From Candidatus Vogelbacteria bacterium (GTDB lineage Bacteria; Patescibacteriota; Minisyncoccia; Phycocordibacterales; XYD1-FULL-46-19): a stretch of 64,000 nucleotides of DNA. Location of the stretch: contig CAIRHC010000007.1 of the NCBI GenBank assembly GCA_903878275.1, positions 78,482 through 142,481 of the forward strand, in the 5' to 3' direction. This document shows, piece by piece, positions 2,479 to 26,325 of this stretch. The position numbers and the translations under genes are program-made. Numbering within the stretch: position 1 is the first letter of the stretch; each line of letters begins with the position of its first letter. Below the pieces are notes generated by a model, which saw nothing but the letters and a program-made list of their open reading frames with translations, did not search any database and was not told the origin of the DNA.

Positions 2479-2488
2479 TCCTACGAAT

Positions 2489-2794: not shown

Positions 2795-2800
2795 AATCAT

Positions 2801-3349: not shown

Positions 3350-3360
3350 AATGAAAGACA

Positions 3361-3390: not shown

Positions 3391-3408
3391 TTTGGTTATA
3401 ATACTATT

Positions 3409-3945: not shown

Positions 3946-4068
3946 GGGGTTTCGAGGCTGTCGAGCCGAGAATTTCAGGATTTTTTAAGCTTCGAAAAAT
4001 CTGTACCCTAAATAAGAGGGTGGCAAGTGAACATTTTGTGGCTGGGCACTAGATATTGCTAGTTTTCG

Positions 4069-4097
4069 TTGACAGGCAAGGCTCTTCTTGCTAGGAT
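4069..4097 (+). promoter_or_regulatory. sigma70-like promoter candidate (TTGACA-17 nt-TGcTAGGAT) upstream of rpsN
   Basis: hexamers and spacing read from sequence in the 155-bp gap after the inserted gene. Confidence 0.35.
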
Positions 4098-4132
4098 AGA
4101 AAGTGGCTCTTAGGAGCCTTATTAATTTATTT

Positions 4133-4318
4133 ATGGCTAAAAAATCCGTTATTGCCCGGGCTCAAAAGACCCCAAAATTTGCTTCGCGCGTCGTGCGCCG
4201 TTGCTTTAAATGTGGTCGCAAAAGAGCCTATATGCGAGATTTTGGCTTGTGTCGTATTTGTTTCCGAGAGTTAGCCAATGAGGGCAAAATTCCAGGAGTA
4301 AGAAAATCATCATGGTAA
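4133..4318 (+). CDS. rpsN: 30S ribosomal protein S14 type Z (zinc-binding)
   Basis: 61 aa from internal MAKKS start; CFKCGRK...CRIC Cys4. Confidence 0.88.
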
Positions 4319-4704
4319 CAGACCCAATCGCCGATTTTTTGGTTCAATTAAAAAACGCCAGTTCTGCCAAGAAAGAATATGTGGTGGCGCCTTTTTCTAA
4401 TGTTAAGATGGAAATCGCCAAGCTTTTAGAAAGAGAGGGTTATATTCAAAATGTTTCGCAAAAAGGGAAAAAAGTTAAAAAATATTTATACTGTGAATTG
4501 GTCTATGGCGAAAAAAGTCCAAAGATCAATGAATTCAAAAGAGTGTCCAAGACTTCCCGCCGAGTTTATGTCGGAGTTCACGATTTAAAACCAGTTCGAC
4601 AAGGTTTTGGTTTGGCGGTGGTTTCGACCTCAAAAGGTCTGATGACTTCCGGTGAAGCCCGAAGGGAAAAGATTGGTGGAGAATTAATGTTTAATCTTTG
4701 GTAA
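4312..4704 (+). CDS. rpsH: 30S ribosomal protein S8
   Basis: 130 aa, [12 protein letters not shown] typical S8. Confidence 0.92.
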
Positions 4705-4714
4705 AAATAATTTT

Positions 4715-5251
4715 ATGTCACGAATCGCCAAACAACAAATTACCTTGCCGGAAAATACCACTGCGACTATCGCTGATGGTACTTTTGCGGTAAAAGGGAA
4801 GCTTGGCGCATTGAGTCGTTTGTTTCGTCGTGAAGTAAAAATTTCTATCGAGGGTTCGGAAGTCAAAGTTGATCCAGTCGGCAAATCTATTACCGCCAAT
4901 GCGATGTCTGGCACGACGGCTTCTCATATTAAAAATATGATTGAAGGTGTGTCGAAAGGTTTTGAAAAGAAATTGATTATCGAGGGCGTCGGTCTTCGTT
5001 ATAATTTAAATGGTAATAAAATCAAATTAGATATTGGTTTTTCTCATCCGGTTGAAGTGGAGATTCCTGATGGTTTGAAAGTGGTGATTGAAAAAAGCAA
5101 TATGACCATTACCGGTTTTGACAAAGAGTTGGTCGGTAGTTTTGCCGCCAAGCTTCGTTCCCTGAAAAAAGCCGAACCATATAAAGGTAAAGGTATTCGT
5201 TATTCTGACGAGGTCGTTCGACGTAAACAAGGTAAGAAAGCCAGTGCCTAA
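4715..5251 (+). CDS. rplF: 50S ribosomal protein L6
   Basis: 178 aa, MSRIAKQQITLPE.. typical L6. Confidence 0.92.
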   Translation: MSRIAKQQITLPENTTATIADGTFAVKGKLGALSRLFRREVKISIEGSEVKVDPVGKSITANAMSGTTASHIKNMIEGVSKGFEKKLIIEGVGLRYNLNGNKIKLDIGFSHPVEVEIPDGLKVVIEKSNMTITGFDKELVGSFAAKLRSLKKAEPYKGKGIRYSDEVVRRKQGKKASA

Positions 5252-5259
5252 AAACTAAT

Positions 5260-5634
5260 ATGAAAGTCATCCGATTTAAAACTCAAAAAGAAAAAAACAC
5301 TCGTCGACATTTGCGTGTGCGAGCGAAAGTTTCTGGTACCGCGGAAAAGCCTCGCTTGTCGGTTTTTCGTTCCAATAAAAATGTTTTTGTTCAGCTGATC
5401 GATGACGCTTCTGGTAAGACCTTAGTTTCAGCCAGTAATACCGAATTGAAAGCCAAGAAAAGTGCCGATGCTTTTGTCAAAGTTTTTCAAGCCAATGAGG
5501 TTGGAAAATTGATTGCCGAAAAAGCGGTCGCCAAAAGTATTACCAAGGCTGTCTTTGATCGTGGCGGTTATCGTTTTTCCGGTCGGGTAAAAGCGGTGGC
5601 GGAGGGTGCTCGTGACGGCGGATTGACTATTTAA
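5260..5634 (+). CDS. rplR: 50S ribosomal protein L18
   Basis: 124 aa, RLSVFRSNK..VQLIDD motif. Confidence 0.9.
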   Translation: MKVIRFKTQKEKNTRRHLRVRAKVSGTAEKPRLSVFRSNKNVFVQLIDDASGKTLVSASNTELKAKKSADAFVKVFQANEVGKLIAEKAVAKSITKAVFDRGGYRFSGRVKAVAEGARDGGLTI

Positions 5635-5642
5635 AAAAAATT

Positions 5643-6212
5643 ATGGAAACCACTAAACCAACAACAACCAATAGACCACAGACCGGAGGTTTTGCTAGTC
5701 GCAAACCAGAAGGTTTTCGCCCGCGCCGATCTGGCGGTGATCGAAAATTTACCGAACGAGAAAAACCAGAATTTGACCATAAAGTCATCAATGTTCGTCG
5801 GGTGGCGCGTGTTGTCGCCGGCGGTCGTCGTTTTAGTTTCTCGGTCGTTGTTGTGGCTGGTGATCGTAAAGGGCGAGTTGGCGTTGGTATCGGCAAGGCT
5901 GGTGATACTTCGCTTGCCATTGAAAAAGCTCTAAACAAAGCGAAGAAAGAGATGATTCGCGTGCCTTTGACCGACAACAAATCAATTGCTCACGAAGTTG
6001 AAGCCAAATTTAAAGCCGCTCATATCATTATTCGTCCAGCCAAAGGACGAGGTTTGATTGCTGGTAGTTCGGTTCGCGTTTTGCTCAATTTGGCTGGCGT
6101 CAAAGATGTGAATGCAAAAATTTCTTCACGCAGTAAAGATAAATTAAATATTGCTCGGGCGACCATTATTGCTTTGTCTAGTTTGCCGAAGACCAATACA
6201 AAATCTGCCTAA
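5643..6212 (+). CDS. rpsE: 30S ribosomal protein S5 with ~45-aa Arg-rich N-terminal extension
   Basis: S5 dsRBD/core motifs (RVVAGGRRFSF.V..GD..GRVG.G.GKA). Confidence 0.9.
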   Translation: METTKPTTTNRPQTGGFASRKPEGFRPRRSGGDRKFTEREKPEFDHKVINVRRVARVVAGGRRFSFSVVVVAGDRKGRVGVGIGKAGDTSLAIEKALNKAKKEMIRVPLTDNKSIAHEVEAKFKAAHIIIRPAKGRGLIAGSSVRVLLNLAGVKDVNAKISSRSKDKLNIARATIIALSSLPKTNTKSA

Positions 6213-7937: not shown

Positions 7938-7947
7938 AGAGGGTAGG

Positions 7948-8112
7948 CATTTGAGTGTAACTTTTAAAACCACAGAAAAAGCCCCAGCGGGGCTTTTTCC
8001 TTTGCTTCAAGTCGCCATTTCGCCCTCGTTCGCCAAAGGCGAACAAAAACAAAGGGCGAAAACCATGCTGGCGATAATTCCGCAGAGGTTTTTAAAAGTT
8101 ACACTCAAATGC
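7948..8112. repeat. 25-bp inverted repeat (gcatttgagtgtaacttttaaaacc / ggtttttaaaagttacactcaaatgc) enclosing ~115 bp with nested hairpins
   Basis: arms read directly; the overlapping ORF 7951..8244 is probably spurious. Confidence 0.6.
7976..7998 (+). terminator. rho-independent terminator aaaaagccccagcggggcttttt after secY
   Basis: GC stem + T run. Confidence 0.6.
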
Positions 8113-8140
8113 CTTGTGGTGTGGGAAGGTTGGAGGCTAA

Positions 8141-8168
8141 AACCGCCCGAGGCAAGCCTCGGGCGGTT
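8141..8168. repeat. REP-like palindrome family 1 (aaccgcccgaggc-aa-gcctcgggcggtt)
   Basis: the same or near-identical palindrome recurs at 8879, 9763, 12655 and 19758; related ACCGCCC stems at 3361, 28789 and 39371. Confidence 0.6.
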
Positions 8169-8202
8169 TAGTTATCCACCGTTATCTTTCCAAAAATCTA
8201 GC

Positions 8203-8229
8203 GGGGGGGGGGGCTTTATTTGTTATACT
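8203..8229 (+). promoter_or_regulatory. poly-G(11) tract + extended -10 (TGtTATACT) promoter module
   Basis: G11 at 8203-8213; TATACT at 8224-8229; the module is conserved upstream of 9915 and 19947. Confidence 0.5.
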
Positions 8230-8294
8230 AAAATTAATTATTAGTTTTTTAACAATTAATCAGGTTGGTCTTTGAAAAGGCTGACCAAAAAATA

Positions 8295-8849
8295 ATGAAA
8301 AAATATCTTTTTGTCTCATTAGTTGTCGCTTCTTTTGTAATTTTGCCGGTGTTTGCCTCGGCACAAGCAGTTTCGTATCATCCAGCGGATACGAATAATA
8401 ATTATAAAATAGAGAAGGATGAATTGGTCTCATACGTTATCTCGTTTCTTTCGCCGACCGGTACCCTTGTTGGGGTGACTTTGTCTCAACTTGCACGAGT
8501 TGTTACTTTCTACAATGCTGGAGGTTATAAAGTTTATAATGGTACTAGCGATGGTTTTGCTCCTAGCCCAGCTTTTCACCCGGCTGATACCAATAAAAAC
8601 TATAAAATAGAATTATCCGAGCTGAATGCTTATCGAGAACTTTATAATCAAAAAATGATAACTTTAACTCAAGTATCAAGGGCAATTACTTTTTATAATG
8701 CCGGAGCTTATAAAGTTGATCCTAGTTCATCTGATGGGTTTGCTCCTCGACGAGTTGTGGTTAGCGAATCAGCCAATAGTGCTCAATTGGCAAGTATTGT
8801 GACCGCGCTGTCTTCTCTGTTGAATGAAATTAAGCAACTTGCAAAATAA
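8295..8849 (+). CDS. secreted protein with two ~65-aa tandem repeats (dockerin/EF-hand-like D.N.N.KIE..EL loops) and a conserved C-terminal amphipathic motif
   Basis: MKKYL signal peptide; repeats YHPADTNNNYKIEKDEL / FHPADTNKNYKIELSEL. Confidence 0.6.
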   Translation: MKKYLFVSLVVASFVILPVFASAQAVSYHPADTNNNYKIEKDELVSYVISFLSPTGTLVGVTLSQLARVVTFYNAGGYKVYNGTSDGFAPSPAFHPADTNKNYKIELSELNAYRELYNQKMITLTQVSRAITFYNAGAYKVDPSSSDGFAPRRVVVSESANSAQLASIVTALSSLLNEIKQLAK

Positions 8850-8878
8850 AACTAAATAAGATTAAGAAATGGAAAAAT

Positions 8879-8906
8879 AACCGCCCGAGGCAAGCCTCGG
8901 GCGGTT
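8879..8906. repeat. REP-like palindrome family 1 copy (likely terminator)
   Basis: aaccgcccgaggcaagcctcgggcggtt. Confidence 0.6.
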
Positions 8907-8940
8907 TGTGTTGCCAGAGCATTTTTTGTATACTAGAAAT

Positions 8941-9345
8941 ATGGAGATAACTCACCAACATAAGCTTGAAGTTGCTAAAATTGCCAAAAAATTCCAATTA
9001 AATCTAGTTGTTATTTTTGGTTCTTTTGCTAATGGAAAACAGCGAGAAGATAGCGATTTAGATATTGCCGTTTTGGGCGACAAAGAAATTTCTTTTAATG
9101 AGCAAATCGGCTTAATAAATGAATTATCTTTAATTTTTAATAAAAACATTGACTTGTCGGTGCTAAACCGAGCGAATCCACTACTACTTTTTCAAGTTAG
9201 CCAGAATTCGGTTATTATTTATGGCAGTCACGAAGAATTTTTGAAGTTTAAACTTTACGCTTTCAATGTCTACAATGATTATGCTCCCTATTTTGCGATG
9301 GAAAATAATTTGAATAAAAAAATAATCAATACTTATGCCAATTGA
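8941..9345 (+). CDS. minimal nucleotidyltransferase (MNT; MntA-like antitoxin)
   Basis: GSFANGK....DSDLD NTase motif. Confidence 0.75.
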   Translation: MEITHQHKLEVAKIAKKFQLNLVVIFGSFANGKQREDSDLDIAVLGDKEISFNEQIGLINELSLIFNKNIDLSVLNRANPLLLFQVSQNSVIIYGSHEEFLKFKLYAFNVYNDYAPYFAMENNLNKKIINTYAN

Positions 9346-9757
9346 TAAAAAACTTATAAGTCGAAAAATTACTTTGATCAACGGTGATTTAAAGAGTTTA
9401 AAAGGCTTAAACAAACTTTCACTCAAAATTTATTTAAGCAACGCGGAGTACGAAACACTGGCGGAAAGATATTTAGAAAGAATAATCGGGCGAATGATTG
9501 ATATTAATTATCATATTTTGTCAGAAAAAGAAAATGAAATGCCCACTGATTTTTACAGTTCTTTTGTTCTGTTGGGCAGAAAAAAGTATTTACCGATAAA
9601 ACTAGCTGAAACGATGGCTGGTTCGGCTGGGTTGCGGAATCGTTTGGCTCACGAGTATGATGAAATTGATGCTAAAAAAGTTTTCGGGGCGATCGATTCT
9701 TGCTTAAAAGATGTACCGAAATACCTAAAGAATATTGTTGCATCGCTGGGTTTGTAA
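9335..9757 (+). CDS. HEPN domain protein (DUF86/HepT-like toxin)
   Basis: RNRLAHEYDEID = HEPN R-x4-6-H motif; overlaps the MNT gene by 11 nt. Confidence 0.7.
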   Translation: MPIDKKLISRKITLINGDLKSLKGLNKLSLKIYLSNAEYETLAERYLERIIGRMIDINYHILSEKENEMPTDFYSSFVLLGRKKYLPIKLAETMAGSAGLRNRLAHEYDEIDAKKVFGAIDSCLKDVPKYLKNIVASLGL

Positions 9758-9762
9758 AAAAT

Positions 9763-9790
9763 AACCGCCCGAGGCTTGCCTCGGGCGGTT
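9763..9790. repeat. REP-like palindrome family 1 copy
   Basis: aaccgcccgaggcttgcctcgggcggtt. Confidence 0.6.
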
Positions 9791-9824
9791 TAGTTATCCA
9801 CCATTATTTCCCTAAAATCTATCA

Positions 9825-9851
9825 GGGGGGGGGGGCTTTATCTGATATACT
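9825..9851 (+). promoter_or_regulatory. poly-G(11) + TGaTATACT promoter module
   Basis: G11 at 9825-9835, then ctttatctgatatact. Confidence 0.5.
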
Positions 9852-9914
9852 GAATAAAATATTCGGCATTTTTAAGTTTTTAAAATTTATTATTAATAAC
9901 TAATTACAAAAATA

Positions 9915-12629
9915 ATGAAAAAATATCTTTTAGGTTTTTTACTCGTCGCTTCTTTGGTGGTGCTTCCGTCGGTGTCTCAAGCTGCTGAAGATTTAACGGT
10001 TACTTTGTATGGTTCGGGTTTGACGAAGGGTGTGGTCGGTGAGCCAGTGGTCCAAACCAGTTTTTCGGTCATGGTCACGCCAAACAACGGTGATGTTTAT
10101 TTGTATACGGGTGGGATATTAGGCATTCAACTTATTCAAGATGGAGGTCGCCCAATGCCCGATAATTGTACTTATAGCCAGAGCCTTACGGGGACATTGC
10201 CTATAGTTACGCATCCTCTAGGAAGCCAATATTATAAACTTGCCAGAGGCACCACTGCTCGTTTCAATGCATCTGTTTATTGTAAGATCAGTCAAATGCA
10301 TCCTGGTACTTATTATGGAAAACTTAGTCACGTAACATATAGCAAGACTGATCCTACGACAACAAACAGTTGGTATGATCAAAATATAGAAAACATCAGG
10401 ACACCAGCATCTATAAATATGTATGTTCTCGGCGAGACTGGTCCGTGGATTAGTTTGGCTGTGGCTAAGGCTGTTCAAGGTGGTTATGAGATTGTTTTAA
10501 CAGGAGAAAGATTGGGTCAGGTAAGAAGCGTGTTCCTGAACAACAAAACATACACTCCCTCAGCCAAACCTGGTGACTCTGTAAGTTTTTTTGCCAGTAT
10601 TGCTGATTTACCTGCCGGTAATTATCCTAGTTATGCTAATTTCTCTGGTGGTAAAAGTAATAATTTTTATCTGATGGTTGGAGGTAGTTCGATTGGAATT
10701 ATTTCACCCAATGGAGGGGAAAATTTAAATGAAGGTTTCGATTATCCTATAAGATGGACAAATTATAATATCACCTCGCCAACCGTTAACGTGGGAATTG
10801 AAAGATATGATAGTTCTGGGGCGTCTCAAGGTTCAACAAATATTATCACTGTCCCAACTACACAAAACAATTCCTATCTTTGGAGGGTTAATCCAAATTT
10901 AGCTTGGCAGGGAACACCGGTGAATCCTTCTTCTGGCCCTTTTAAGTATAAAATTTATGTTAATACTCCAGTCGGTGTTTCCCCAGTTGTTTCTGATTAT
11001 AGTGATAATTATTTTACTATAGCTGCATTAAATCCGACAGCCAAAGTCGCTGTCACCTCCCCAAAAGGAGGAGAGTCATTAGCTCAAGGCTCTACTTATA
11101 ATATTACGTGGAATGCTGCTAGTACTGTCACTAAAGTTGCCATCAGTCTTCTTAAGGGTGATATCGTTCGCTCTACTTCTATTATCAATCCGGTATCAGC
11201 TTCGGCGGGAACTTATGCTTGGAAAGTTGGAAACACCGCAGCGGGAATGATGGAGCCTGGGACTGATTATCGAATCAAAGTTTATGGTGTGACCGATGCC
11301 GGTGTCCCTATTGCGGATGCTAACAGTACCAGTAATTATTTCAGTATTGTGGTATCAGCACCAGCGACCGCTCCCACCATTAATAGTATTACTCCAAACA
11401 CCGCACCGATCGGAACTGCTTCTCGGGTAATCATCCGAGGCTTAAATTTCAGTATCGGTGATACTGTGTATCGTTTTGACGGAGAAATTCAAAGTCAACC
11501 ATTCTGTACTATCGGCGTTAACGCCAATGGGAACTACGACTGTCTTCCTGCTAAACTACCCGCTGGTGCGTACAAGCTTGCGGTGGTAAACTCTCGTGGG
11601 ACGAGCAATAAAGTGGATTTTACTTTTACTCCAGCTACGGCTATACCCACTCTTTCTGTGTCGCTAGATCCTTCTAACCCAACCAGACAAAACATCGGTG
11701 CGGGATCTATTGATCAAGTTTTTGTTAGAATTAAAGTTACCGCCGGATCGATGGATGTTAATAATCTTCAAGGAATCCAACTTGGTTCAGATTCTGCTAA
11801 TGCCAATGATTTTATAACCAACATAAAAGTTTTTGATGGGGCAAATCAGTTGGGTGGAACCATCTCTGGGTTGGACAATAATGGAAAAATTTTTTATAAA
11901 TGGACTTATCCTACTGGCGTAATGATTCCAGCTGGTACCTCTAAGATTCTGACCATTGTCGCCGAAGTGAAATCGACAGCTTCTAGCAATAGCAATTTTC
12001 GTTTAGGTATAACTGGCTGGAATTTTGTTTTTCCGGGGACTGCTGTGGAGCCGTTCGGGACACCGATATATGGTAATTATATGACGATAACGGCTTTGAC
12101 AGATCAGCCGACAATCACCGCAGTAGCAATGGCTTTACCAAATTGTTCTCTTGGTGCGATCAACTGTACTTGGCAGGCGGGGACAGATGGATATTATCTT
12201 TGGGGTTACCTTAATCCTAATACTCCGACCGGTAATACCGTCTCGGTTAGTCTTTGTGCCCCAGACGGAATAACCTGTACGATAGCAAAAGATGCTTCAC
12301 TTAAGGATCTCAACAAAGTACCGTCAAAAACTGGAACCGGATTAGGTAACCTGAATTCTGATAAGGCACCGCTTGGTCGTGGTGTTTTAACCAACCCAGA
12401 TCTGGTGGGAGGGAAGAATCCTGTTATCGTCAATAATCAGTCAACCTTAAAAATCTGCCCAACCAATGCCGACGGTTCGCCTGTGACTAGTGGTATTTGC
12501 AAGGTTAGTCCGGTTTTTACCATTACTCCGCCAGCTACCGCTAGTAATTCTCTGGTGAGTCGACAGTTGGCAAGTATTATTACAGTTTTGTCGGATTTAT
12601 TGGCGAAGATTCGGGGATTGGCTTGGTAA
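9915..12629 (+). CDS. large secreted multi-domain surface protein (Ig-like SPNGGE..W..ITW domains, IPT/TIG-like module)
   Basis: 904 aa, signal peptide MKKYLLGFLLVASLVVLPSVSQA; shares a ~260-nt module with the 19947 gene. Confidence 0.7.
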   Translation: MKKYLLGFLLVASLVVLPSVSQAAEDLTVTLYGSGLTKGVVGEPVVQTSFSVMVTPNNGDVYLYTGGILGIQLIQDGGRPMPDNCTYSQSLTGTLPIVTHPLGSQYYKLARGTTARFNASVYCKISQMHPGTYYGKLSHVTYSKTDPTTTNSWYDQNIENIRTPASINMYVLGETGPWISLAVAKAVQGGYEIVLTGERLGQVRSVFLNNKTYTPSAKPGDSVSFFASIADLPAGNYPSYANFSGGKSNNFYLMVGGSSIGIISPNGGENLNEGFDYPIRWTNYNITSPTVNVGIERYDSSGASQGSTNIITVPTTQNNSYLWRVNPNLAWQGTPVNPSSGPFKYKIYVNTPVGVSPVVSDYSDNYFTIAALNPTAKVAVTSPKGGESLAQGSTYNITWNAASTVTKVAISLLKGDIVRSTSIINPVSASAGTYAWKVGNTAAGMMEPGTDYRIKVYGVTDAGVPIADANSTSNYFSIVVSAPATAPTINSITPNTAPIGTASRVIIRGLNFSIGDTVYRFDGEIQSQPFCTIGVNANGNYDCLPAKLPAGAYKLAVVNSRGTSNKVDFTFTPATAIPTLSVSLDPSNPTRQNIGAGSIDQVFVRIKVTAGSMDVNNLQGIQLGSDSANANDFITNIKVFDGANQLGGTISGLDNNGKIFYKWTYPTGVMIPAGTSKILTIVAEVKSTASSNSNFRLGITGWNFVFPGTAVEPFGTPIYGNYMTITALTDQPTITAVAMALPNCSLGAINCTWQAGTDGYYLWGYLNPNTPTGNTVSVSLCAPDGITCTIAKDASLKDLNKVPSKTGTGLGNLNSDKAPLGRGVLTNPDLVGGKNPVIVNNQSTLKICPTNADGSPVTSGICKVSPVFTITPPATASNSLVSRQLASIITVLSDLLAKIRGLAW

Positions 12630-12654
12630 GAAAAATATAGATTAAGAAACGGGA

Positions 12655-12686
12655 AAACCCCGCCGAGGCAAGCCTCGGCGGGGTTT
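12655..12686. repeat. REP-like palindrome family 1 variant / terminator
   Basis: aaaaccccgccgaggcaagcctcggcggggtttt. Confidence 0.6.
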
Positions 12687-12720
12687 TGCTTTTTGGTTAT
12701 GTTGGCGTTATGATTAGGAA

Positions 12721-13326
12721 ATGGAAAATCTCAAAACCTTTATTTTTATTGGTCGGTCGGGAAGTGGCAAGGGCACTCAAGCCGAGCTTCTTGTAAATCA
12801 CTTCAAAGAAACCGGTGTGATCAATGACCAAAATCCACTTTTTTACCTAGAGACCGGTCATCAGTTTCGTGAATTTATTACCAGCACTAGTCATACTGGG
12901 CGCTTGGCAAAAGCCGTGATGGATAAGGCAGAGCGCCAGCCGGATTTTTTGGCAGTGTGGTTGTGGTCGCATATGTTTGTGGAAAATATTGTCGGTGATG
13001 AGCATTTGTTTTTGGATGGCACACCACGTTCACTTAATGAAGCGCGAACTCTCGACACAGCGATGACTTTTTATAGCCGAAAAAATATTTGTGTTGTTTA
13101 TTTGGACGTCTCACGTGAAGAATCAAAACGGCGAATGGAAGAGCGTAGTCGGGCTGATGATAAAAAAGTTTCGGATATTGAAACTCGCCTGAATTGGTTT
13201 GATACCGATGTCTTGCCGGCGGTAAAATTCTACGAAGATAATTCCCGTTATCATTTTTTGAAAATAAATGGCGAACAGACACGAGAGAAAATTCACGAAG
13301 ATATCGTTTCGGCGTTGCCAAAATAA
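12721..13326 (+). CDS. adk: adenylate kinase (short type)
   Basis: GRSGSGKGTQA P-loop, LDGTPR motif; the usual gene after secY. Confidence 0.7.
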   Translation: MENLKTFIFIGRSGSGKGTQAELLVNHFKETGVINDQNPLFYLETGHQFREFITSTSHTGRLAKAVMDKAERQPDFLAVWLWSHMFVENIVGDEHLFLDGTPRSLNEARTLDTAMTFYSRKNICVVYLDVSREESKRRMEERSRADDKKVSDIETRLNWFDTDVLPAVKFYEDNSRYHFLKINGEQTREKIHEDIVSALPK

Positions 13327-13331
13327 AATTT

Positions 13332-14096
13332 ATGATTAAATTAAAAACTCCCGAACAGATAGAAATTTTGCGGGCTGGAGGCGAAAGATTGGCTAAGATT
13401 TTGGCGACGGTGGCGCGCGAAGTCAAAGCTGGCGTGGAAACTCGAGCACTTGACGATTTGGCGCAAAAACTTATTTTGGCGGGAGGTGATAAGCCCGCTT
13501 TTTTGAATTACCGACCAGCTGGGTCACGTCTGGCCTATCCAGCCTCTCTTTGTGTTTCGATCAACGAAGAAATTGTTCACGGCATTCCGAGTAATCGGAA
13601 AATTGCCGACAGTGATGTGGTAAGTATCGACCTTGGTCTGATTCACAATGGAATGTACACCGATATGGCAGTGACAGTGGCTGTGGGCGAGGTAGATAAA
13701 ATAAAAAAGAAAATGATTGAAGTGGCGCGCGAGGCTCTGAACGTGGGAATTAAAGAGGCAAAAATTGGGGGACATATCGGTGATATTAGTCAGGCAATCG
13801 AAGATTTTATTATCGGTCAAGGTTTCGATGTTGTCTTAGACTTGGCTGGTCACGGTGTCGGTTTCCAAGCCCACGAAGATCCGTTTATTCCCAATTATGG
13901 TAAAAAAGGTAAAGGGGAAAAAATCGAAGAAGGTTTGGTTTTGGCGATTGAGCCGATGGTGACACTCGGTGATGGAAAAATAAAACTGGAAAAAGATGGT
14001 TTTACTTTTACGACTCGCAACAAAGAATGGTGCGCGCATTTTGAGCATACGATTGCTGTTACCAAAAATGGTCCAAAAATTTTAACAAAATTATAA
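13332..14096 (+). CDS. map: type I methionine aminopeptidase
   Basis: 254 aa; pita-bread fold motifs; position after adk. Confidence 0.88.
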   Translation: MIKLKTPEQIEILRAGGERLAKILATVAREVKAGVETRALDDLAQKLILAGGDKPAFLNYRPAGSRLAYPASLCVSINEEIVHGIPSNRKIADSDVVSIDLGLIHNGMYTDMAVTVAVGEVDKIKKKMIEVAREALNVGIKEAKIGGHIGDISQAIEDFIIGQGFDVVLDLAGHGVGFQAHEDPFIPNYGKKGKGEKIEEGLVLAIEPMVTLGDGKIKLEKDGFTFTTRNKEWCAHFEHTIAVTKNGPKILTKL

Positions 14097-14112
14097 GGAT
14101 TAAACTTGCTTA

Positions 14113-14140
14113 CCGGAATTTTGCCCAGGCAAAATTCCGG
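14113..14140. repeat. REP-like palindrome family 2 (ccggaattttgcc-cag-gcaaaattccgg)
   Basis: same palindrome family as six copies in the pilin locus. Confidence 0.6.
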
Positions 14141-14156
14141 CAGGTTAAATATTATT

Positions 14157-14714
14157 ATGATAAAAGAAGAACAAACACTGATTGTCGTCAAACCCGATGG
14201 CGTCAATCGTGGTCTGGTCGGGGAAATCATTGCTCGTTTTGAAAAAGCTAGGTTCAAAATTATAGCGTTGAAGATGGTCGAAGTCGAAAAAACTTTAGTG
14301 CAAAAACACTACAACCACGACGACGCTTGGATGGAAAAAGTCGGCGAGCGGACGCGGGAATTTTACGAAAAACATGGCGAAGACGAGGGTGAGAAAATTG
14401 GCAAGATGACAAATAAAGAAATTGGTAAGATGATTGAAGATTGGAGTTGCGACTATATGACAGACGGTCGAGTAGTAGCGGTGGTCTTGCAAGGTCACAA
14501 TGCCATTCAAACGGTCCGTAAAATGGTTGGCGCCACTTATCCGAGCGAAGCTTTGCCGGGAACCGTCCGTGGTGATTATTCAAACGAATCACCCCTCTCC
14601 GCCAACATCAACAAACGTTGTGCCCACAATATCATTCACGCCTCCGGCAATCCCGAAGAAGCCAAATTCGAAATTGACCTATGGTTTAAAAATGAAGAAA
14701 TTTGCCAGAAGTAA
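14157..14714 (+). CDS. ndk: nucleoside diphosphate kinase with ~45-aa internal insertion
   Basis: TLIVVKPDGV, NIIHAS motifs; start set after the palindrome. Confidence 0.75.
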   Translation: MIKEEQTLIVVKPDGVNRGLVGEIIARFEKARFKIIALKMVEVEKTLVQKHYNHDDAWMEKVGERTREFYEKHGEDEGEKIGKMTNKEIGKMIEDWSCDYMTDGRVVAVVLQGHNAIQTVRKMVGATYPSEALPGTVRGDYSNESPLSANINKRCAHNIIHASGNPEEAKFEIDLWFKNEEICQK

Positions 14715-17800: not shown

Positions 17801-17883
17801 AGCTAACTAAATTTTACCTGTTGGTGGCGGTTGTGATATACTTAAACAAGTTTTTATTATCAATTATTAATTAATTTAAATAA

Positions 17884-19713
17884 ATGAAAAAATATCTCGT
17901 AGTTTTAATACTTGTCGGACTAATCATCTCGACTCCTTTGGCAACCCAAGCTTTTAGTGGAGGGGATCTCTCTTCGCTTATTACTAAAATAGAAAATCTT
18001 ATTGTTCAGTTGAAGCAAGTGCAACTGGCAGCGGTTTTTAGTAGAAACCGGGTAGTCAAAAAAGCCCCGACACCGACACCTACACCAGCCACGGGTACTT
18101 ATTATGTCGATTGTGCCAGTACTGCCAACGATAATAATGCTGGTACTAGTGCAACAAAGCCTTGGCATACCATCGGCCGTGCTTCTTGTATGAGTGATAA
18201 TCCGCAGTGTGGCTCTTTTAAACCTGGCGATACTATTTTGTTTAAACGGGGTTGTACCTGGACTGGCGAGCAATTAACCATCAACACGTCTGGCACTGCT
18301 GGTAAGCCAATTACTATCGCTGACTACGGCACTGGTAATTTGCCGATTATACAGGGCAGTGTCTCTGCTCCAGTTGGTGTTGGTAACGTAAGAGATATGA
18401 TTAATGTAAACGGCAAGAGCTATCTGACATTTCAAAATCTAGAAATAAGATATGCTGAAAATCCGGTGGTTGTAAATAATTCTAGCAATATTGTTTTAAA
18501 TAATCTTAATATTCATGACAATATCGGCTACGGTGCCATTCTTTTAACCGCTGATAGTCAGAGTACAACAAATAATACCGTAAGTAATACTACAATATAC
18601 AATACCAAAGCCAGTACCGAATCAGGACAGATTGGCGAAAATGGCGACCCCAATAGTCGTGGTCATGGAATTTTTATGTTTTCTAATTCAAGTCAGTCAT
18701 TGGTAAATAATAACATTTTTACCGGCAATACTATTTATAATAATGGTGAGTCTGGTATCGACATGATTTTGGGATCAAATAATCGCTTTAGTCAAAATAA
18801 AATTTATAACAATGGCAGTTCCGGCATTAGTTTGGTAAGTGTTAACGGTGAATCTAATGGTAATATTGTTGAGAACAATCTTGCTTACAATAATGGTCAA
18901 ACAACCGACGACGTTGCCGGTATCGATTTGCATCGTATCGGTAGTAATAATATTGTAAGGTATAATGCGGTTTATAATACAGTTGATGCTTTAATAGCGC
19001 CGACAATCCCAGCTCGTCCATGGAATAATGGTACAAAATACGGCAACGTTGGCATTAGATTTGATAGTAATACTGACCAGTCAGTACCGGTGATTGCTGC
19101 CACTGGTAATCAAGTTTATTACAATCTAATCGTTGGCGGCACTTATAATTTTATGAATATTCGCAATACCGGTCTATCATTCTTCAACAATATTCTACAT
19201 AACAGCTCATCGGATAATGTCCGAATTCATAACAGTAAAGATGTTCTTGATTTTGTTTTTAAGAATAATATTCTTACTCGTAATAGTAATAACGAAAACG
19301 TTTATTTTGTTCGCATTCAAGATGCTAAAAATGTTACTGATCCTGCTAAGTTCAACAATAATATGTATTATTCTTCGGTCGCTGGTGGCAAGTTCTGCGC
19401 GCTTACAGATAAAGATGCTTGGTGCTTAAATCCGGTTACGACGCTGGCTGATTGGCAAAGTCAAAGTGGCTTTGATAAAACAAATTCGTTAATAGCTAAT
19501 CCTCAATTTTCAGCAACTGCTCCGACAAGTGTTTCGGCAACTAATATTGAGAGCGCAGTCAGTAGCTTTAAACTAAACGCTACTTCACCAGCCTTGGATA
19601 AGGGTGCCACAGATGTGACTGCTGGGTTATCGTTAGCTCAAGATTATTTTAGTCAAAGCGTGCCGTACGGCAGTAGCTTACCAGATCTTGGCTTTAGCGA
19701 AATTGCTAAATAA
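17884..19713 (+). CDS. secreted right-handed beta-helix (pectate-lyase-fold) protein
   Basis: signal peptide; PTPTPTP linker; repeated NN..IxNN and IYNNG.SGI PbH1-like turns. Confidence 0.7.
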   Translation: MKKYLVVLILVGLIISTPLATQAFSGGDLSSLITKIENLIVQLKQVQLAAVFSRNRVVKKAPTPTPTPATGTYYVDCASTANDNNAGTSATKPWHTIGRASCMSDNPQCGSFKPGDTILFKRGCTWTGEQLTINTSGTAGKPITIADYGTGNLPIIQGSVSAPVGVGNVRDMINVNGKSYLTFQNLEIRYAENPVVVNNSSNIVLNNLNIHDNIGYGAILLTADSQSTTNNTVSNTTIYNTKASTESGQIGENGDPNSRGHGIFMFSNSSQSLVNNNIFTGNTIYNNGESGIDMILGSNNRFSQNKIYNNGSSGISLVSVNGESNGNIVENNLAYNNGQTTDDVAGIDLHRIGSNNIVRYNAVYNTVDALIAPTIPARPWNNGTKYGNVGIRFDSNTDQSVPVIAATGNQVYYNLIVGGTYNFMNIRNTGLSFFNNILHNSSSDNVRIHNSKDVLDFVFKNNILTRNSNNENVYFVRIQDAKNVTDPAKFNNNMYYSSVAGGKFCALTDKDAWCLNPVTTLADWQSQSGFDKTNSLIANPQFSATAPTSVSATNIESAVSSFKLNATSPALDKGATDVTAGLSLAQDYFSQSVPYGSSLPDLGFSEIAK

Positions 19714-19757
19714 TAATATTTAAATTTAGTTAAGATAAATAAAAGATTGTAAGAATA

Positions 19758-19791
19758 AATCCCGCCCGAGGCTAGTCCTCGGGCGGGATTT
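19758..19791. repeat. REP-like palindrome family 1 variant / terminator
   Basis: aaatcccgcccgaggctagtcctcgggcgggattt. Confidence 0.6.
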
Positions 19792-19875
19792 GCGGTGAAG
19801 CTAATTAGAATGGGGATAACCCGTGAGCCGTGCGAACGGAGCAGTCCCCCGAAGTGGGGATAACTAAATTATACT

Positions 19876-19901
19876 GGGGGGGGGGCTTTCTGTGATATAC
19901 T
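19876..19901 (+). promoter_or_regulatory. poly-G(10) + TGaTATACT promoter module
   Basis: G10 at 19876-19885, then ctttctgtgatatact. Confidence 0.5.
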
Positions 19902-19946
19902 TAAACAAGTTTTTATTATCAATTATTAGTTTAATTTATTTTATTT

Positions 19947-21779
19947 ATGAAAAAATATCTCGTAGCCTTGGCACTAGTCGGGCTAATCATCTCGACTCCT
20001 TTGGCAACCCAAGCTTTTAGTGGAGGGGATCTCTCTTCGCTTATTACTAAAATAGAAAACCTTATTACTCAATTAAAACAATTTCAATTGGGTGCGGTCG
20101 GAACTATCACTGGAGAATCAGCGATTTTAAGTGATTTTGTTTTTACTCCATCCTCACCGTTGGCGATCAACACTACTATCACTGGGAAAGTTAAAATTAC
20201 CAACAACGGCACTGTCGCTCTTCCTGGAGCTGGATATGGTTTGAGGGCGACAAATGTGACAGATTCTAAATTTCTATTTTCTGTTTTTGTGCCCACTATT
20301 CAGCCTGGAGCTTCGGTTGTTCTCCAAAATGGTATGACCTTCTCGTTCCCGACAGCTGGCTACAAAGATACTTTGTGGGAATTAATAAAGGTGGGCAGTA
20401 CTGTGCCTTTGACGACGACTCATCAATATCTCGTGGCGGGGGAAAGTGCCGGTCTTCTTTTTGATTCTTTCTCGCTGGCTTCTCCTGTTGCTCCAAATAC
20501 CAATGTCACCGCGAGTATCAAAGTGGTCAGTAATGGTACCGCTTTATCTGGCTATCAGCTCGTCGGAACGAGTGACACTGGTTTAGTTATCCCAACTATT
20601 ACTGATGTTTCTGTCCCCTCGGCTAGCCCGGCTGGTATTCAAATTAAAACTTTTACCACCCCACCATTTAATTCTGGTACATCCGGAAACTCGGTCATTA
20701 CTTGGAAATTAATTAAAGGCACTACGGTTTTGGGAAATGCGGTGACGGGGACTTTGATGGTGGGTCAAGCAACTCCTTCTATTGCTGTAATTTCCCCAAA
20801 TGGAGGAGAAAATTGGAAAGTGGGTGAAACACATAATATTACTTGGAAGACTAAAGACCTTCCGTCGTCAGATATAATTAATATTAATTTGTTACAGAAG
20901 AATAATGCAATGTTGTTTGTGGCCAATGCTATTAATTCCGGTTCTTATTCTTGGACGATCCCTGTTGAAATGCATGGTTTCAATTTAAATGAGGACGATA
21001 ATTATAAAATACAGCTTCTCGATAATAAGGCGCAACCTTCTTATTTTTCTGACTTGAGCGATACTTATTTTAGTATTTTGGAATCACCTACCACTCCCAC
21101 CGTCAATAGTATTACTCCAAACACCGCACCGATCGGAACTACTTCTCGAATAATAATCAGAGGTTTAAATTTCAGCATCGGTAGCACCATCTATACTTTT
21201 AATGGAGAGACGAAGGACAAACTGTTCTGTACTATCAGCGTCAACGCCAATGGGAACTATGATTGTCCTCTTCCTGCTACTTTTTCCGCTGGTGCATACA
21301 AACTTGCGGTGGTAAACTCTCGTGGGACGAGCAATAAGGTAGATTTTACGTTTACTTCTATTCCTGTTATTACTAATTTAACTGTGGCGTCTACCTCAGC
21401 TATTTTAGGTCAAGGTATTGGTAGTCCGGTCGATCGTTATCCTGTCACTTTTTCTTTTACTCTGGTTAATTCAGGCGATATTCCTTTGTATTTGTCGAAT
21501 AATCCTTCAATTGCATTTGCAACAGTGACATCTCCCGTAAATTCTCCATCTAGTGTTTCTTCTTTTCTTGCGTCTCTTTTACCGGGGGATTCACCTGGTG
21601 CATATGTTATACCGGCGAACGGACAGAGAAGATTCGTAGCTTCTGGACTGATTATGAGTTCTCTTCAAGGAGCAGGGTTACAAATTGTGAGTATATTTTA
21701 CGGTACTTCAGCCAGTGATTTGAGAGCCCTGAACATAGATGTTTCTCGTAAAGGTTTGGGTCAAATGGTGCTTAATTAG
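19947..21779 (+). CDS. secreted surface protein (paralogue of the 17884 N-terminus; Ig-like and IPT-like modules)
   Basis: first ~45 aa near-identical to the 17884 gene; IPT module ~85% nt identical to 11383-11640. Confidence 0.7.
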   Translation: MKKYLVALALVGLIISTPLATQAFSGGDLSSLITKIENLITQLKQFQLGAVGTITGESAILSDFVFTPSSPLAINTTITGKVKITNNGTVALPGAGYGLRATNVTDSKFLFSVFVPTIQPGASVVLQNGMTFSFPTAGYKDTLWELIKVGSTVPLTTTHQYLVAGESAGLLFDSFSLASPVAPNTNVTASIKVVSNGTALSGYQLVGTSDTGLVIPTITDVSVPSASPAGIQIKTFTTPPFNSGTSGNSVITWKLIKGTTVLGNAVTGTLMVGQATPSIAVISPNGGENWKVGETHNITWKTKDLPSSDIININLLQKNNAMLFVANAINSGSYSWTIPVEMHGFNLNEDDNYKIQLLDNKAQPSYFSDLSDTYFSILESPTTPTVNSITPNTAPIGTTSRIIIRGLNFSIGSTIYTFNGETKDKLFCTISVNANGNYDCPLPATFSAGAYKLAVVNSRGTSNKVDFTFTSIPVITNLTVASTSAILGQGIGSPVDRYPVTFSFTLVNSGDIPLYLSNNPSIAFATVTSPVNSPSSVSSFLASLLPGDSPGAYVIPANGQRRFVASGLIMSSLQGAGLQIVSIFYGTSASDLRALNIDVSRKGLGQMVLN

Positions 21780-21841
21780 GAGTGAGGTCGAACCTCACCT
21801 AGGGGATGTCGTTTGTGTTGTAATGTTTTATCTAAAAAATT

Positions 21842-22063
21842 ATGACTACTATCTCGGTACCGTTAAATGCTAAATTAGAAAAAGCTATTAACCATTTGAT
21901 TGAGTCTGGTTATGGCTCTAATAAAATCGAAGTTATTCATCGAGCTGTTATTAGCGCCTCAGAAGAAGAGGCTATCGGAATAGTTCTAAGAGCTAAAAAA
22001 GAGATATCTCTGGGGAGGGGCATAAAAGGTGGTTTAAAAGAATTGGTTAAAAAGTTTAAATAA
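21842..22063 (+). CDS. ribbon-helix-helix (CopG/ParD-like) small protein
   Basis: TISVPL beta-strand followed by two helices. Confidence 0.45.
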   Translation: MTTISVPLNAKLEKAINHLIESGYGSNKIEVIHRAVISASEEEAIGIVLRAKKEISLGRGIKGGLKELVKKFK

Positions 22064-22097
22064 CATTCTAACTCACCGAGAGGTGAATGATAAAACA

Positions 22098-22131
22098 AAA
22101 AAACGGAGAAGTTAAACTTCTCCGTTTTTTT
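22098..22131. terminator. bidirectional terminator aaaaaacggagaagttaaacttctccgttttttt
   Basis: hairpin between convergent genes. Confidence 0.65.
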
Positions 22132-22142
22132 TGTTTTTAAAT

Positions 22143-23899: not shown

Positions 23900-24166
23900 A
23901 TGAAACATACCGTTTATATTTTATTTAGCCATAAAGATAAAAAACTTTATGTTGGTTGTGCTAAAGATGTAATGGAAAGGCTGAAGAGACACAATGCAGG
24001 GTCGGTGCTTGCGACTAAAAATCGTAGACCTTTTTCTTTAATTTATACTGAAACTTTTACCGATAAAGCCGAAGCTTTTAATCGGGAAAGATTTTTGAAA
24101 AGTTTATGGGGCGCTAGATTAAAGAAAAAGGTCTTGGACGATTTTTTAAAGGCCAAGGCTAAATAA
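23900..24166 (+). CDS. GIY-YIG nuclease-superfamily small protein
   Basis: VYIL.S..DKKLYVG....ERL..HN. Confidence 0.7.
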   Translation: MKHTVYILFSHKDKKLYVGCAKDVMERLKRHNAGSVLATKNRRPFSLIYTETFTDKAEAFNRERFLKSLWGARLKKKVLDDFLKAKAK

Positions 24167-24248
24167 ATTTTGAAGTATGTTTTATGGCTAAAACATTTTT
24201 GCAAGCAAAAATGTTCGCCCGAACAAATTTCTTTGAAATTTGTTTTAG

Positions 24249-24652
24249 GGGGATGATCGGCTTCGACAGGTAGCCTTTCTCTAGTGTGTATGTGGAGACT
24301 CCGAATCCTCCTTAAACATCGGAAAAACAGTCAAATGCCAACGCATCTGACAAGGGACTTGTGGCTTCGCCATATTTCTCTCCAGCCTTGGCTTTAGCCT
24401 AACGCTGGTGCTGGCTTAAATCGCAGTCTGGATGATTTAAGTTGGTATAATAAATTCTGGACTAGCAATTAAACATTTCTCGGTTTAAAAGCGAAACAAA
24501 GAGAATCGACTAATTAAGGTTTTGTTTGTTTAACACTTAGTTAGTTTAAATCCGCTCGGCGATTAGCCGAGCGGGACATAAACAATCTACACATATAGAT
24601 TCACTAAAGTAACCTATTTGCACGGGGGTTCGATTCCCCCCATCTCCACCCA
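24249..24652 (+). ncRNA. ssrA: tmRNA (ssrA)
   Basis: 5' GGGGATGATCGGCTTCGACAGG; 3' tRNA-like GGGGGTTCGATTCCCCC T-arm + CATCTCCACC with a G3:U wobble; internal tag ORF ending ..PALALA-TAA at 24337-24402. Confidence 0.8.
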
Positions 24653-24761
24653 AAGTTGACAATTTGTGTCAAAAGCATAATATATTGGTATAACTATGGA
24701 AGAGACCCTTATGTAGATACGTCTGCATCGGGGGCTTTTTCTTTTTGATTGGGCTTAAAGT

Positions 24762-25247
24762 TTAAGATGATTTTTTAGAAAACTTGTGATAATGTTCGTT
24801 AAGAAAAGTAATTTCGGTATTTTTATTTCTTAACAAAATTGAGCACTTGTTTTCGTCAGGAGAAATAACTCGATCTAAAACAGAATTATTATCCAAAAAT
24901 TCCACCAAGCAACCAAAATCGCCATCACCAGAAACGAGAATACATTTATCAAACGCTTTGTTATAAAAGTCAGAGACAGTTTTTAAAACCAGTTCGGCAT
25001 CGCAATTACCCTTAATTACTCCTCCAACCGAAACGGTTTGTTTGAAAACTAAAATAAAACCACATTCTTGCAGATGCTCGTAAAATTTGGTTCTCGTTGG
25101 AACGAGACCGATAAAAAGGTAGATATTTGAAGTGTCATATTTTTGCCGAAGCCAACCATAAAATTTTTTGTAATCAATTCCAAAACCAAGTTCTTTGGCT
25201 CCGCGATATAAATTATTGCCGTCAATATAAATGTTGGTTCTAATCAC
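24762..25247 (-). CDS. NYN-domain (LabA/DUF88-like) protein
   Basis: IYIDG.N...LVSGDGDF pattern. Confidence 0.65.
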   Translation of the reverse strand: MIRTNIYIDGNNLYRGAKELGFGIDYKKFYGWLRQKYDTSNIYLFIGLVPTRTKFYEHLQECGFILVFKQTVSVGGVIKGNCDAELVLKTVSDFYNKAFDKCILVSGDGDFGCLVEFLDNNSVLDRVISPDENKCSILLRNKNTEITFLNEHYHKFSKKSS

Positions 25248-25788
25248 GAAATTATTTTAGTATAGTTTCATCAAAAGACTGCTAAATATCCATATTCCTC
25301 AATCAGTAAGCATTAAAGGGTTGCGCTTATTTAAATTTTATATTTTTTATAAAAATAGGATAAATTTTGTTTTAATTTATTAATTGCTACTATTCGGAAA
25401 CAAATGTTTAACGGCGACCAAAAGCATTGTTGTGACTTGGGTTATGGTGGCAAAGATAACAAGGTTAAAACTCCATTCTTCTAAGTGAAATTGCAGAAAT
25501 TTGAAACCTTGGAAAAAGGCGATGATAAAAATAATGACAGTCTCGGCGGTCAAAAGGTCAAAAAGTAAAGATAAGGTTGTGCCTTTTAAATTTATATTTT
25601 GTTCGAACGCTTGATTTTCTAGTTGCCCCTTTTTAATTTTTATTTGTTCGTCGATGCTTCGCGGAGTAATAATTGGGTAACGATTAATTTTCTGCGGTTC
25701 AACTGGTCTTTTGACTAAAATTTATCGGATCCGCTGTTTTTGGTCAGTGATAGTCTCAAGATTTTTTTCTTCGGGCGTCTGCATAGTG

Positions 25789-26325
25789 CTATTCTTTGAT
25801 TAGCTCTAGTTTTGTAAGTCTGATCGTCATAGCCAAAACTGAAACGTTGAATATTTTTGCACACTCTTCTATATTTTTTAATTCTTTCCAAGCTTTTGCG
25901 ACTTGGTTTTCTGGCATAATTAAGGCGGCGGCAAAATTGTTGGCTTCAATCTCGATGGAGGTAGCGACTTGGTCGTCCAGCCTAAACAATGTCCGCCCTT
26001 CAAGAGTGGCGTCGTCATCGACAATTGGTTCTTCTTCGGTGATGAGATTTTGGTGGAGAAAATAATGTCCTAGCTCGTGGGCAATCGTAAAATGTTGTCG
26101 GGTTTGCGGTTTGTTTATATTGATAATGATCGTGAACTCGGCATCGTTTTTGTTGTAGGTAATTGCGCCAGAGATATTGTTGTCTTCTTGATCCATTTCT
26201 ATCAAAACAATTTTCAGATTTTTTTTATCTGCTTCAATATTTTCGTACGGAAAAGGGGAAAGTCCGTCGGGGTTATAATCAGTGATAATTTTTTCCGCTA
26301 ATTCTCGGCATTTTTGCACGTTCAT
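25789..26325 (-). CDS. ImmA/IrrE-family zinc metallopeptidase (DUF955)
   Basis: HELGHYFLH HEXXH motif. Confidence 0.7.
   Translation of the reverse strand: MNVQKCRELAEKIITDYNPDGLSPFPYENIEADKKNLKIVLIEMDQEDNNISGAITYNKNDAEFTIIININKPQTRQHFTIAHELGHYFLHQNLITEEEPIVDDDATLEGRTLFRLDDQVATSIEIEANNFAAALIMPENQVAKAWKELKNIEECAKIFNVSVLAMTIRLTKLELIKE

Follow-up and report, generated by a model that had tools for sequence, protein, structure and literature searches.

Can a promoter whose regulatory motif points the opposite way from the motif of its paralogues be switched by DNA inversion, or does it record a rearrangement that became fixed in the past? The question is raised by positions 19758-19946 of the window (the whole stretch of DNA that was analysed, 64 kb in length), which form the intergenic control region of the secreted-protein gene 19947. 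The first-pass annotation recognized in this region a third copy of a poly-G promoter, in which the segment that carries GTTATCC in the other copies is replaced by one that carries its reverse complement, GGATAAC, and proposed an invertible or rearranged regulatory segment in addition to the G tract. The SecY protein encoded in the window is 72-73% identical to that of Candidatus Vogelbacteria genomes, which places the organism in the Paceibacteria (Patescibacteria/CPR). Most Patescibacteria/CPR are not yet genetically tractable and their gene regulation is almost uncharted.

Architecture of the poly-G promoters

The features of the four promoter copies, of the genes that follow them and of a related promoter lacking a G run are collected in Table 1.

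Table 1. Coordinates of the promoter elements and genes, and distances of the box centres from the transcription starts predicted from the -10 elements
Feature	Position	Strand	Remarks
Copy 1	8140-8229	+	hairpin 8140-8169, forward box GTTATCCACC 8171-8180, 22 nt, G11 8203-8213, 10 nt, TGtTATACT 8221-8229
Gene 8295	8295-8849	+	secreted, 184 aa, downstream of copy 1
Copy 2	9765-9851	+	hairpin 9765-9788, forward box GTTATCCACC 9793-9802, 22 nt, G11 9825-9835, TGaTATACT 9843-9851
Gene 9915	9915-12629	+	secreted, 904 aa, downstream of copy 2
Copy 4	17804-17842	+	upstream of 17884-19713; box remnant TAACTAAATT only, -35 TTTACC, 18-nt spacer, TGaTATACT
Copy 3, hairpin	19757-19791		15-bp perfect, GC-rich, terminator-like; after the stop codon of 17884-19713; from fold and repeat comparison
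Copy 3, distal box	19811-19820	-	TGGGGATAAC (TTATCCCCA on the - strand); centre at about -93 from predicted transcription start
Copy 3, spacer	19821-19854		34 nt, GC-rich, with small CCGT-GCGA-ACGG hairpin; between both boxes
Copy 3, proximal box	19854-19868	-	GTGGGGATAACTAAA (TTTAGTTATCCCCAC on the - strand); 11-12 nt 5' of the G run; centre at about -49
Copy 3, -35-like hexamer	19870-19875	+	TATACT; aligns with the TTTACC -35 of copy 4 (17813-17818)
Copy 3, G10 tract	19876-19885	+	homopolymeric; -35/spacer zone, about -32 to -23
Copy 3, extended -10	19893-19901	+	TGaTATACT; TGnTATACT element present in all four copies
Copy 3, leader	19902-19946	+	AT-rich, 45 nt, no Shine-Dalgarno; 90-100% identical to the 17884 leader
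Gene 19947	19947-21779	+	610-aa secreted protein, signal peptide, Kre9_KNH Ig-like and IPT/TIG domains
Pilin promoter	51382-51437	+	box TTATCCACC 51382-51390 (about -58) and promoter without G run, TAGGCA-17-TGcTATAAT; drives type IV pilin cluster at 51622
Box centre, copies 1 and 2	-60		relative to predicted start
Box centre, copy 3	-49 and -93		relative to predicted start
Box centre, L009	-51		relative to predicted start
Box centre, L110	-50		relative to predicted start
Box centre, L106	-56		relative to predicted start

Copies 1 and 2 have a single layout, in which a shared hairpin is followed by TTTA, the box GTTATCCACC, 22 nt, G11, 10 nt and TGnTATACT. A good -35 is not conserved before their G runs, so these promoters appear to rely on the extended -10. 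The G run precedes TGnTATACT by 10 nt in three window copies; the G10 of copy 3, before TGaTATACT, and the two G11 tracts alike are the kind of mononucleotide run, of at least 8-9 nt in or beside the core promoter, expected of a phase-variable promoter. Runs of at least eight G are found only three times in the 64 kb, namely in copies 1, 2 and 3, and all of them lie on the + strand. Counted as overlapping matches, G8 occurs 11 times against 1.2 expected, a number reached in none of 100 shuffles of the 64-kb window.

The boxes of copy 3 are opposite to those of copies 1 and 2, and copy 4 is degenerate. The GGATAAC/GTTATCC reversal is real, since TGGGGATAAC of copy 3 is the reverse complement of GTTATCCACC of copies 1 and 2, and the inverted match is even longer than first claimed: the 11-mer TTTAGTTATCC is common to 8167 (+), 9789 (+) and 19858-19868 (-). 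The description of a segment replaced in copy 3 holds only roughly, because the hairpin and the G run are 84 nt apart, versus 36 nt in copies 1 and 2, and about 60 nt (19792-19854) resemble nothing else in the window or the fetched loci. Within this longer interval TGGGGATAAC occurs twice, as a 10-nt direct repeat with a 44-nt spacing (19811-19820 and 19855-19864). The first unit begins 19 nt after the hairpin and the second runs on as ...TAAATTATACT. The 34-nt spacer between the boxes has a GC content of about 68%, versus 41% for the window, and is likewise found nowhere else in the window, nor at any of the fetched loci. Downstream, CTTTCTGTGA separates G10 from TATACT (19896-19901), and the spacer from the -35-like hexamer to the -10 amounts to 20 nt including G10.

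The 9-mer GGGGATAAC is present at 19812-19820 and 19856-19864 and a third time at 53580 (3 matches against 0.29 expected, with 3 reached in 0 of 100 shuffles). The 7-mer GTTATCC alone is not enriched, with 11 matches against 7 expected.

In copy 4 the G run has decayed to GTTGGTGGCGG, and TTTACC-18 nt-TGaTATACT is a regular promoter. According to the alignment, the homology of copies 3 and 4 begins inside the proximal box, and a stretch of about 245 bp, from TAACTAAATT through codon ~52, is about 90% identical between 17884 and 19947; the first ~50 residues are common to their products.

The hairpin CCGCCCGAGG-n4/5-CCTCGGGCGG is used four times in the window, each time after a different gene (8143-8166, 8881-8904, 9765-9788 and 19762-19786). 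The remaining terminators of the window are unrelated to it in sequence and, consequently, the CCGCCCGAGG/CCTCGGGCGG hairpins constitute a small repeat family.

The box motif and its conservation

The motif upstream of the G tracts can be written TTAGTTATCC[A/C]C[A/C]C. Its core differs by at most one mismatch from TTATCCACA, which is the DnaA-box consensus, a likeness that was recognised after the fact. A survey of 778 kb in 44 loci (the window and related Paceibacteria) found a 9-mer with at most one mismatch from TTATCCACA 12-24 nt 5' of each of the six runs of at least ten G, four times in forward and twice in reverse orientation. A single run would have such a 9-mer within 70 nt by chance with a probability of about 0.02, or about 4e-9 over the five independent loci. 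Copy 3 carries a second box, 56 nt from the G run. The seven box instances, all within one mismatch of TTATCCACA, comprise TTATCCACC (8172, 9794 and L110), TTATCCCCA (19811, 19855 and L009) and the perfect TTATCCACA (L106). In about 700 kb (the window and L002-L039) there are just three exact copies of the 10-mer GTTATCCCCA, and all of them adjoin a G10.

Three related loci carry the pair outside the window. At L009 (Candidatus Nomurabacteria, SecY 63% identical) the order is hairpin-c-GTTATCCCCACC-22 nt-G10-TATACT-7 nt-ATG, and the gene that follows (6538) encodes a secreted Lcl_C-domain protein inserted between rplE and rpsN. At L110 (LOG 82% identical), in a position homologous to that of copy 4, TTAGTTTATCCACC-14 nt-G10-CTTTAGTGTTATCAT with the box GTTTATCCACC precedes the gene of a membrane-anchored protein of 413-424 aa (10741). 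The layout of the box is forward at both loci. The closest relative, L106 (Candidatus Vogelbacteria, LOG 89% identical), has hairpin-10 nt-GTGGATAAC-19 nt-G10-10 nt-TACAAT, with a perfect TTATCCACA that is reversed as in copy 3. The L106 element was considered as an orthologue of copy 3 and rejected, given that the alignment recovers shared short features only.

The proximal box centres fall between -49 and -60 from transcription starts that are predicted from the -10 boxes, so their position is steadier relative to the promoter than to the G run. Box and G tract are thus a recurrent pair in this lineage, in either orientation, 49-60 nt upstream of the predicted start. The claim that the reversed elements are a conserved motif stands, as all six runs of at least ten G are paired with it, related genomes included, and the motif is of the kind that a regulator would be expected to bind.

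The assembled tract lengths are narrow, with G10 or G11 in the six elements and G9-G11 among paralogues and orthologues; those of this genome come from one assembly, and the related G-run loci are single contigs. The genome appears once in the protein collection and has no close strain there. The tract of copy 4 is decayed, versus G10 at the homologous site of L110, and the G9 run of L111 has no box. In several related species the syntenic 20 kb are entirely free of G runs. Further relatives of the LOG gene (P0086 with ten strains, P0075, P0093 and P0066) keep the synteny and contain no runs of at least nine G. Homologues of the 19947 protein are remote relatives only, with no orthologous promoter among them. 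Strain variants of L106 were sought through its BRO protein, and the exact protein was found on one contig only.

The box is not restricted to promoters with a G tract. It also stands before the type IV pilin cluster (Table 1) and, in a weaker form, before the secreted-protein gene 27849. Besides the match to the consensus within one mismatch, its placement is non-random: seven of the window's 23 boxes fall between genes, although intergenic sequence makes up only about 13% of the total. It is nevertheless doubtful, although worth considering, that TTATCC[A/C]C[A/C] is a genuine DnaA box and that DnaA together with the G10-11 tract would co-regulate the surface-protein cassettes and the pilin operon.

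DnaA-box-like motifs beside G runs were also observed in viruses. In IMG/VR viral contigs (L082-L105), tandem perfect boxes of the form GTTATCCACA(A/G)GTTATCCACA are followed 9-25 nt later by G9-G14. These tandem boxes are found in several unrelated high-GC contigs, e.g. L092 5473-5510, and some are placed at contig ends. Ten of the 11 independent GTTATCCAC matches in the viral contigs run on with A. The contexts differ, as they include the space between an HNH endonuclease and the large terminase (L092), the vicinity of a primase/helicase (L105) and that of a ParB-like methyltransferase (L094). If the DnaA reading were true, the recurrence of box and G9-14 in phages would point to a more general functional coupling.

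A scan for G8-CTTT-N3-TG-N-TATAMT gave no match in genome contigs, none in viral contigs and one in metagenome contigs. The single match (L001 11036-11061, - strand, metagenome contig Ga0209737_10000093) reads G10-CTTTCTTTGTTATACT, agrees with copy 1 at 25 of 26 positions and precedes the gene of a 682-aa secreted PD40/Listeria-Bacteroides-repeat protein. The contig belongs to a non-CPR bacterium with ilvD, ilvA and glmU-type genes, and no DnaA-box-like motif accompanies the element; the match may be due to convergence or chance.

Genes under the promoters and their genomic setting

The products of the three G-run genes and of 17884 all begin with MKKYL..., carry a signal peptide and are secreted proteins of the beta-helix or Ig-like/TIG type. 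A signal peptide or N-terminal anchor is present on all readable products downstream of G runs (8295, 9915, 19947, L009 6538 and L110 10741), as expected for surface genes. The surrounding order secY-adk-map-ndk-DUF2238-betaCASP-LOG-rplT/rpmI/infC-smpB is kept in the relatives. The surface-protein genes are variable inserts at conserved junctions, in the ribosomal-protein/secY-adk cluster and at LOG|rplT, and their content differs in every species examined. The insert regions correspond to 7938-12720 and 17801-22142 in the window, 6431-7523 in L009, 10649-12062 in L110, and 1992-5880 and 11819-14728 in L111.

Other elements are found in and around these inserts. An MNT/HEPN toxin-antitoxin pair (8908-9757) is among the inserts of the window. 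A MITE-like element (7945-8114), in which 120 bp are bounded by perfect terminal inverted repeats of 25 bp (AGGCATTTGAGTGTAACTTTTAAAA and its complement), sits between the stop codon of secY and the first hairpin/poly-G promoter. In one relative (L124), a large serine recombinase (12678-14240; Resolvase, Recombinase and Zn_ribbon_recom domains, 520 aa) adjoins smpB/tmRNA, a typical integration hotspot; the counterpart of this site in the window (23900-26325) contains GIY-YIG, NYN and ImmA-like genes.

An IS200-like Y1 transposase (52813-53469; Pfam Y1_Tnp, E = 9.7e-9) lies between perfect inverted hairpin repeats of 19 bp (52765-83 and 53521-39), with a 14-bp inverted repeat likewise on its flanks and tandem repeats of 16 nt, AACAAGGGGAGGTTGA, ahead of it (52708-52775). 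The stretch 52700-53600 resembles a RAYT (REP-associated tyrosine transposase)/REP arrangement. The third GGGGATAACTA (53580) is located 40 nt beyond the right hairpin of this transposase. A link between the transposase/REP arrangement and the promoter copies was considered and discarded, because the hairpin that borders the transposase, GGGAGGTTGAGCCTCCCC, is not a member of the CCGCCCGAGG family.

A probable tract promoter with an upstream operator

The region 19758-19946 is rather likely to be a homopolymeric-tract promoter with an upstream operator, the expression of which would be tuned or switched by the tract. A sequence-specific DNA-binding protein, for which DnaA would be the obvious candidate, would occupy the motif and help or hinder the RNA polymerase, the promoter having no good -35. 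Slipped-strand mispairing in the G tract would then shift the length of the spacer or the phasing of the operator and, consequently, tune or switch expression. The tract probably tunes or phase-varies expression. The 20-nt spacer of copy 3, compared with the 18-nt spacer of copy 4, would fit a length-dependent expression, although this is only suggestive.

Three points have to be set beside this explanation. Since copies 1 and 2 lack a good -35 before the run, the effect that a change in length would have on them is not obvious. A fixed structural role of the tract would agree as well with the narrow lengths (10-11) and with the lack of a credible -35 in copies 1 and 2. Copy 4 looks like a working promoter without a box.

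The reversed orientation of copy 3 is best explained by a fixed evolutionary rearrangement, that is, a duplication or insertion that left the 10-bp direct repeat around a foreign, GC-rich 34-nt piece.

Alternative explanations

The loss of the box in copy 4, which keeps a good promoter, also suits the idea that the upstream part of copy 3 is a neutral scar: the GGGGATAAC pair and the 34-nt piece would be the by-product of a duplication or insertion, and only the G run and the -10 would matter. The 34-nt spacer is unique and GC-rich, and the homology of copies 3 and 4 starts within the proximal box. However, 11-15 nt of this box agree with the motif seen across the lineage, its centre is at -49, close to those of L009 (-51) and L110 (-50), and the association of boxes with G10-11 runs in six of six cases is far beyond chance. 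A mere scar is thus unlikely.

The genomic setting would also fit the idea that hairpin, motif and G run mark the 5' edge of mobile surface-protein cassettes, the motif being a site of recombination or insertion and not a transcriptional operator. The variable genes that bear the module lie at the conserved junctions secY|adk, LOG|rplT and, in L009, rplE|rpsN, the module is duplicated before unrelated genes, and the breakpoint of the homology between copies 3 and 4 is in the motif. Against this, none of the elements has a linked recombinase, no matching site is seen at the 3' end of the inserted genes, and the motif recurs at the promoter of the pilin genes, which belong to a conserved pilus operon. 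A cassette boundary of this kind seems quite improbable.

For an invertible switch, a site-specific recombinase would flip about 19796-19875, or the 713 bp of 19869-20581, and thereby change the orientation of promoter and operator. The motif of copy 3 is indeed opposite to that of copies 1 and 2, and perfect inverted repeats of 10 bp (19723-32/19861-70) and 12 bp (19857-68/20582-93) are present, the latter enclosing the promoter and the first 212 codons. Both repeats are, however, AT-rich and at chance level (blast E = 11 for the 10-mer and 0.69 for the 12-mer, with a 233-nt query against 64 kb). The 10-mer repeat leaves the -10 outside, and flipping 19733-19860 would not restore the layout of copies 1 and 2. 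A further inverted repeat, a 14-mer at 86% identity (19862/19928), encloses only 52 bp. The 64-kb window contains no resolvase, invertase or integrase, but only the Y1 (IS200-like) transposase, 33 kb off. Neither the inverted repeats beyond chance nor the nearby recombinase that characterize invertons are therefore found in the window. The GGGGATAAC copies are direct repeats, which favours deletion or duplication and not inversion. Furthermore, another species (L106) has the reverse layout as a fixed state; as some loci and species are fixed for the forward layout and others for the reverse one, the differences in orientation need no switch. Of the proposal of an invertible or rearranged segment, the second half is borne out, as copy 3 is rearranged relative to its paralogues, and the first is not supported, given the chance-level repeats, the lack of an invertase in the window and the layout of L106. 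Active DNA inversion is not supported for copy 3, and a switch of this type is highly improbable.

The 13-mer GGTTTAGTTATCC in the coding region of 19947 (20580-20592, codons G-L-V-I-P) is the sequence that follows the hairpins of copies 1 and 2, and with the proximal box (19857-19868) it makes up the 12-bp perfect inverted repeat. It was considered as an inversion partner and rejected, given that a 12-13-mer match is expected about 0.7 times and this one is probably due to chance.

It is also scarcely probable that a divergent small RNA of about 105 nt is transcribed from the - strand through both GUUAUCCCCA repeats to end at the hairpin 19791-19757: the - strand does offer ATCACA-17 nt (with C10)-TATAAT at 19896-19868, the best promoter-like match (10/12) in a 5.5-kb scan, and the symmetric hairpin has a U-rich stretch after it on that strand. 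However, the - strand fold of the part outside the terminator does not surpass that of shuffled sequences (z = -0.5 to -0.7), L106 has not kept the - strand -10 despite the same reverse layout, and the 60-nt body has no homologue in any locus. A structured RNA in general was set aside as well, since the region has no Rfam match (two sub-threshold chance hits, of 24 and 16 bits versus a gathering threshold of 60) and its fold is weak without the terminator hairpin; the fold z-scores were -2.5 on the + and -0.7 on the - strand.

Significance and comparison with known systems

The inverted motif is real, yet there is no sign of an inversion switch. The module composed of operator motif, G10-11 and extended -10 marks variable surface-protein genes in several genera. 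As it is short and recognisable, it can serve as a signature for contingency genes in metagenome-assembled genomes. It also provides a testable prediction, namely classes of G-tract length, and a candidate operator for a retained DNA-binding protein. Reduced genomes retain few such proteins, and the motif would be the candidate operator of one of them. If DnaA were the binder, the replication or energy state would be tied to a portable promoter module in tiny-genome bacteria of the episymbiont type, and this would be the first repeat-mediated phase variation and DnaA-centred surface regulon in the candidate phyla radiation. In full-text literature searches, no paper turned up that treats phase variation or homopolymeric promoters in Patescibacteria, or that connects DnaA boxes with poly-G tracts. 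The design, in which an operator, a homopolymer and a -10 precede surface-protein genes, is already known from other bacteria and is not previously described in this lineage.

Invertible promoters are represented by E. coli fimS and by the invertons of Bacteroides and Clostridioides. The promoters described here share with them a regulatory motif in two orientations before surface-protein genes. Unlike invertons, they have no significant flanking repeats and no recombinase in the window, and the orientation differs between loci and not within one.

DnaA boxes serve as transcriptional operators, e.g. in the dnaA and nrdAB promoters, and function in either orientation. The motif found here is similar in that its 9-mer core, with at most one mismatch, occurs in either orientation. 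It differs from DnaA boxes in being longer (TTAGTTATCC.C.C), and its commonest variants, TTATCCACC and TTATCCCCA, are not classic.

In Bordetella pertussis fim2/fim3, a poly-C tract lies between the BvgA site and the -10, and its slippage changes the register between activator and polymerase. The order of (putative) activator site, homopolymer and -10 is the same in the promoters of the window and its relatives, whereas here the spacing between motif and tract varies (11-24 nt).

In Neisseria meningitidis, a poly-G tract is placed between the -35 and the -10 of porA, and a poly-C tract over the -35 of opc (PMC7864442). The present promoters resemble both in having a homopolymer of 9-11 nt in the -35/spacer zone of a surface gene, and the spacers of copies 3 and 4 (20 and 18 nt) fit the logic of spacer length. 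Unlike porA and opc, copies 1 and 2 have no recognisable -35, and a conserved upstream motif accompanies the tract.

In Treponema pallidum, the promoters of tprE/G/J, tprF/I, tprL and tp0126 contain poly-G tracts of 7-11 G in vivo and are transcribed only at certain lengths, and the tract length acts together with an upstream CRP-type site (CRP homologue Tp0262) (PMC7864442). The promoters of the Paceibacteria (CPR) belong to a different phylum, their partner motif is DnaA-box-like and not of the CRP type, occurring in both orientations, and their tract lies 9-10 nt 5' of an extended -10. As in T. pallidum, on the other hand, a G tract is found in the promoters of genes for surface or outer-membrane proteins, an upstream site accompanies it, and several paralogues carry the module.
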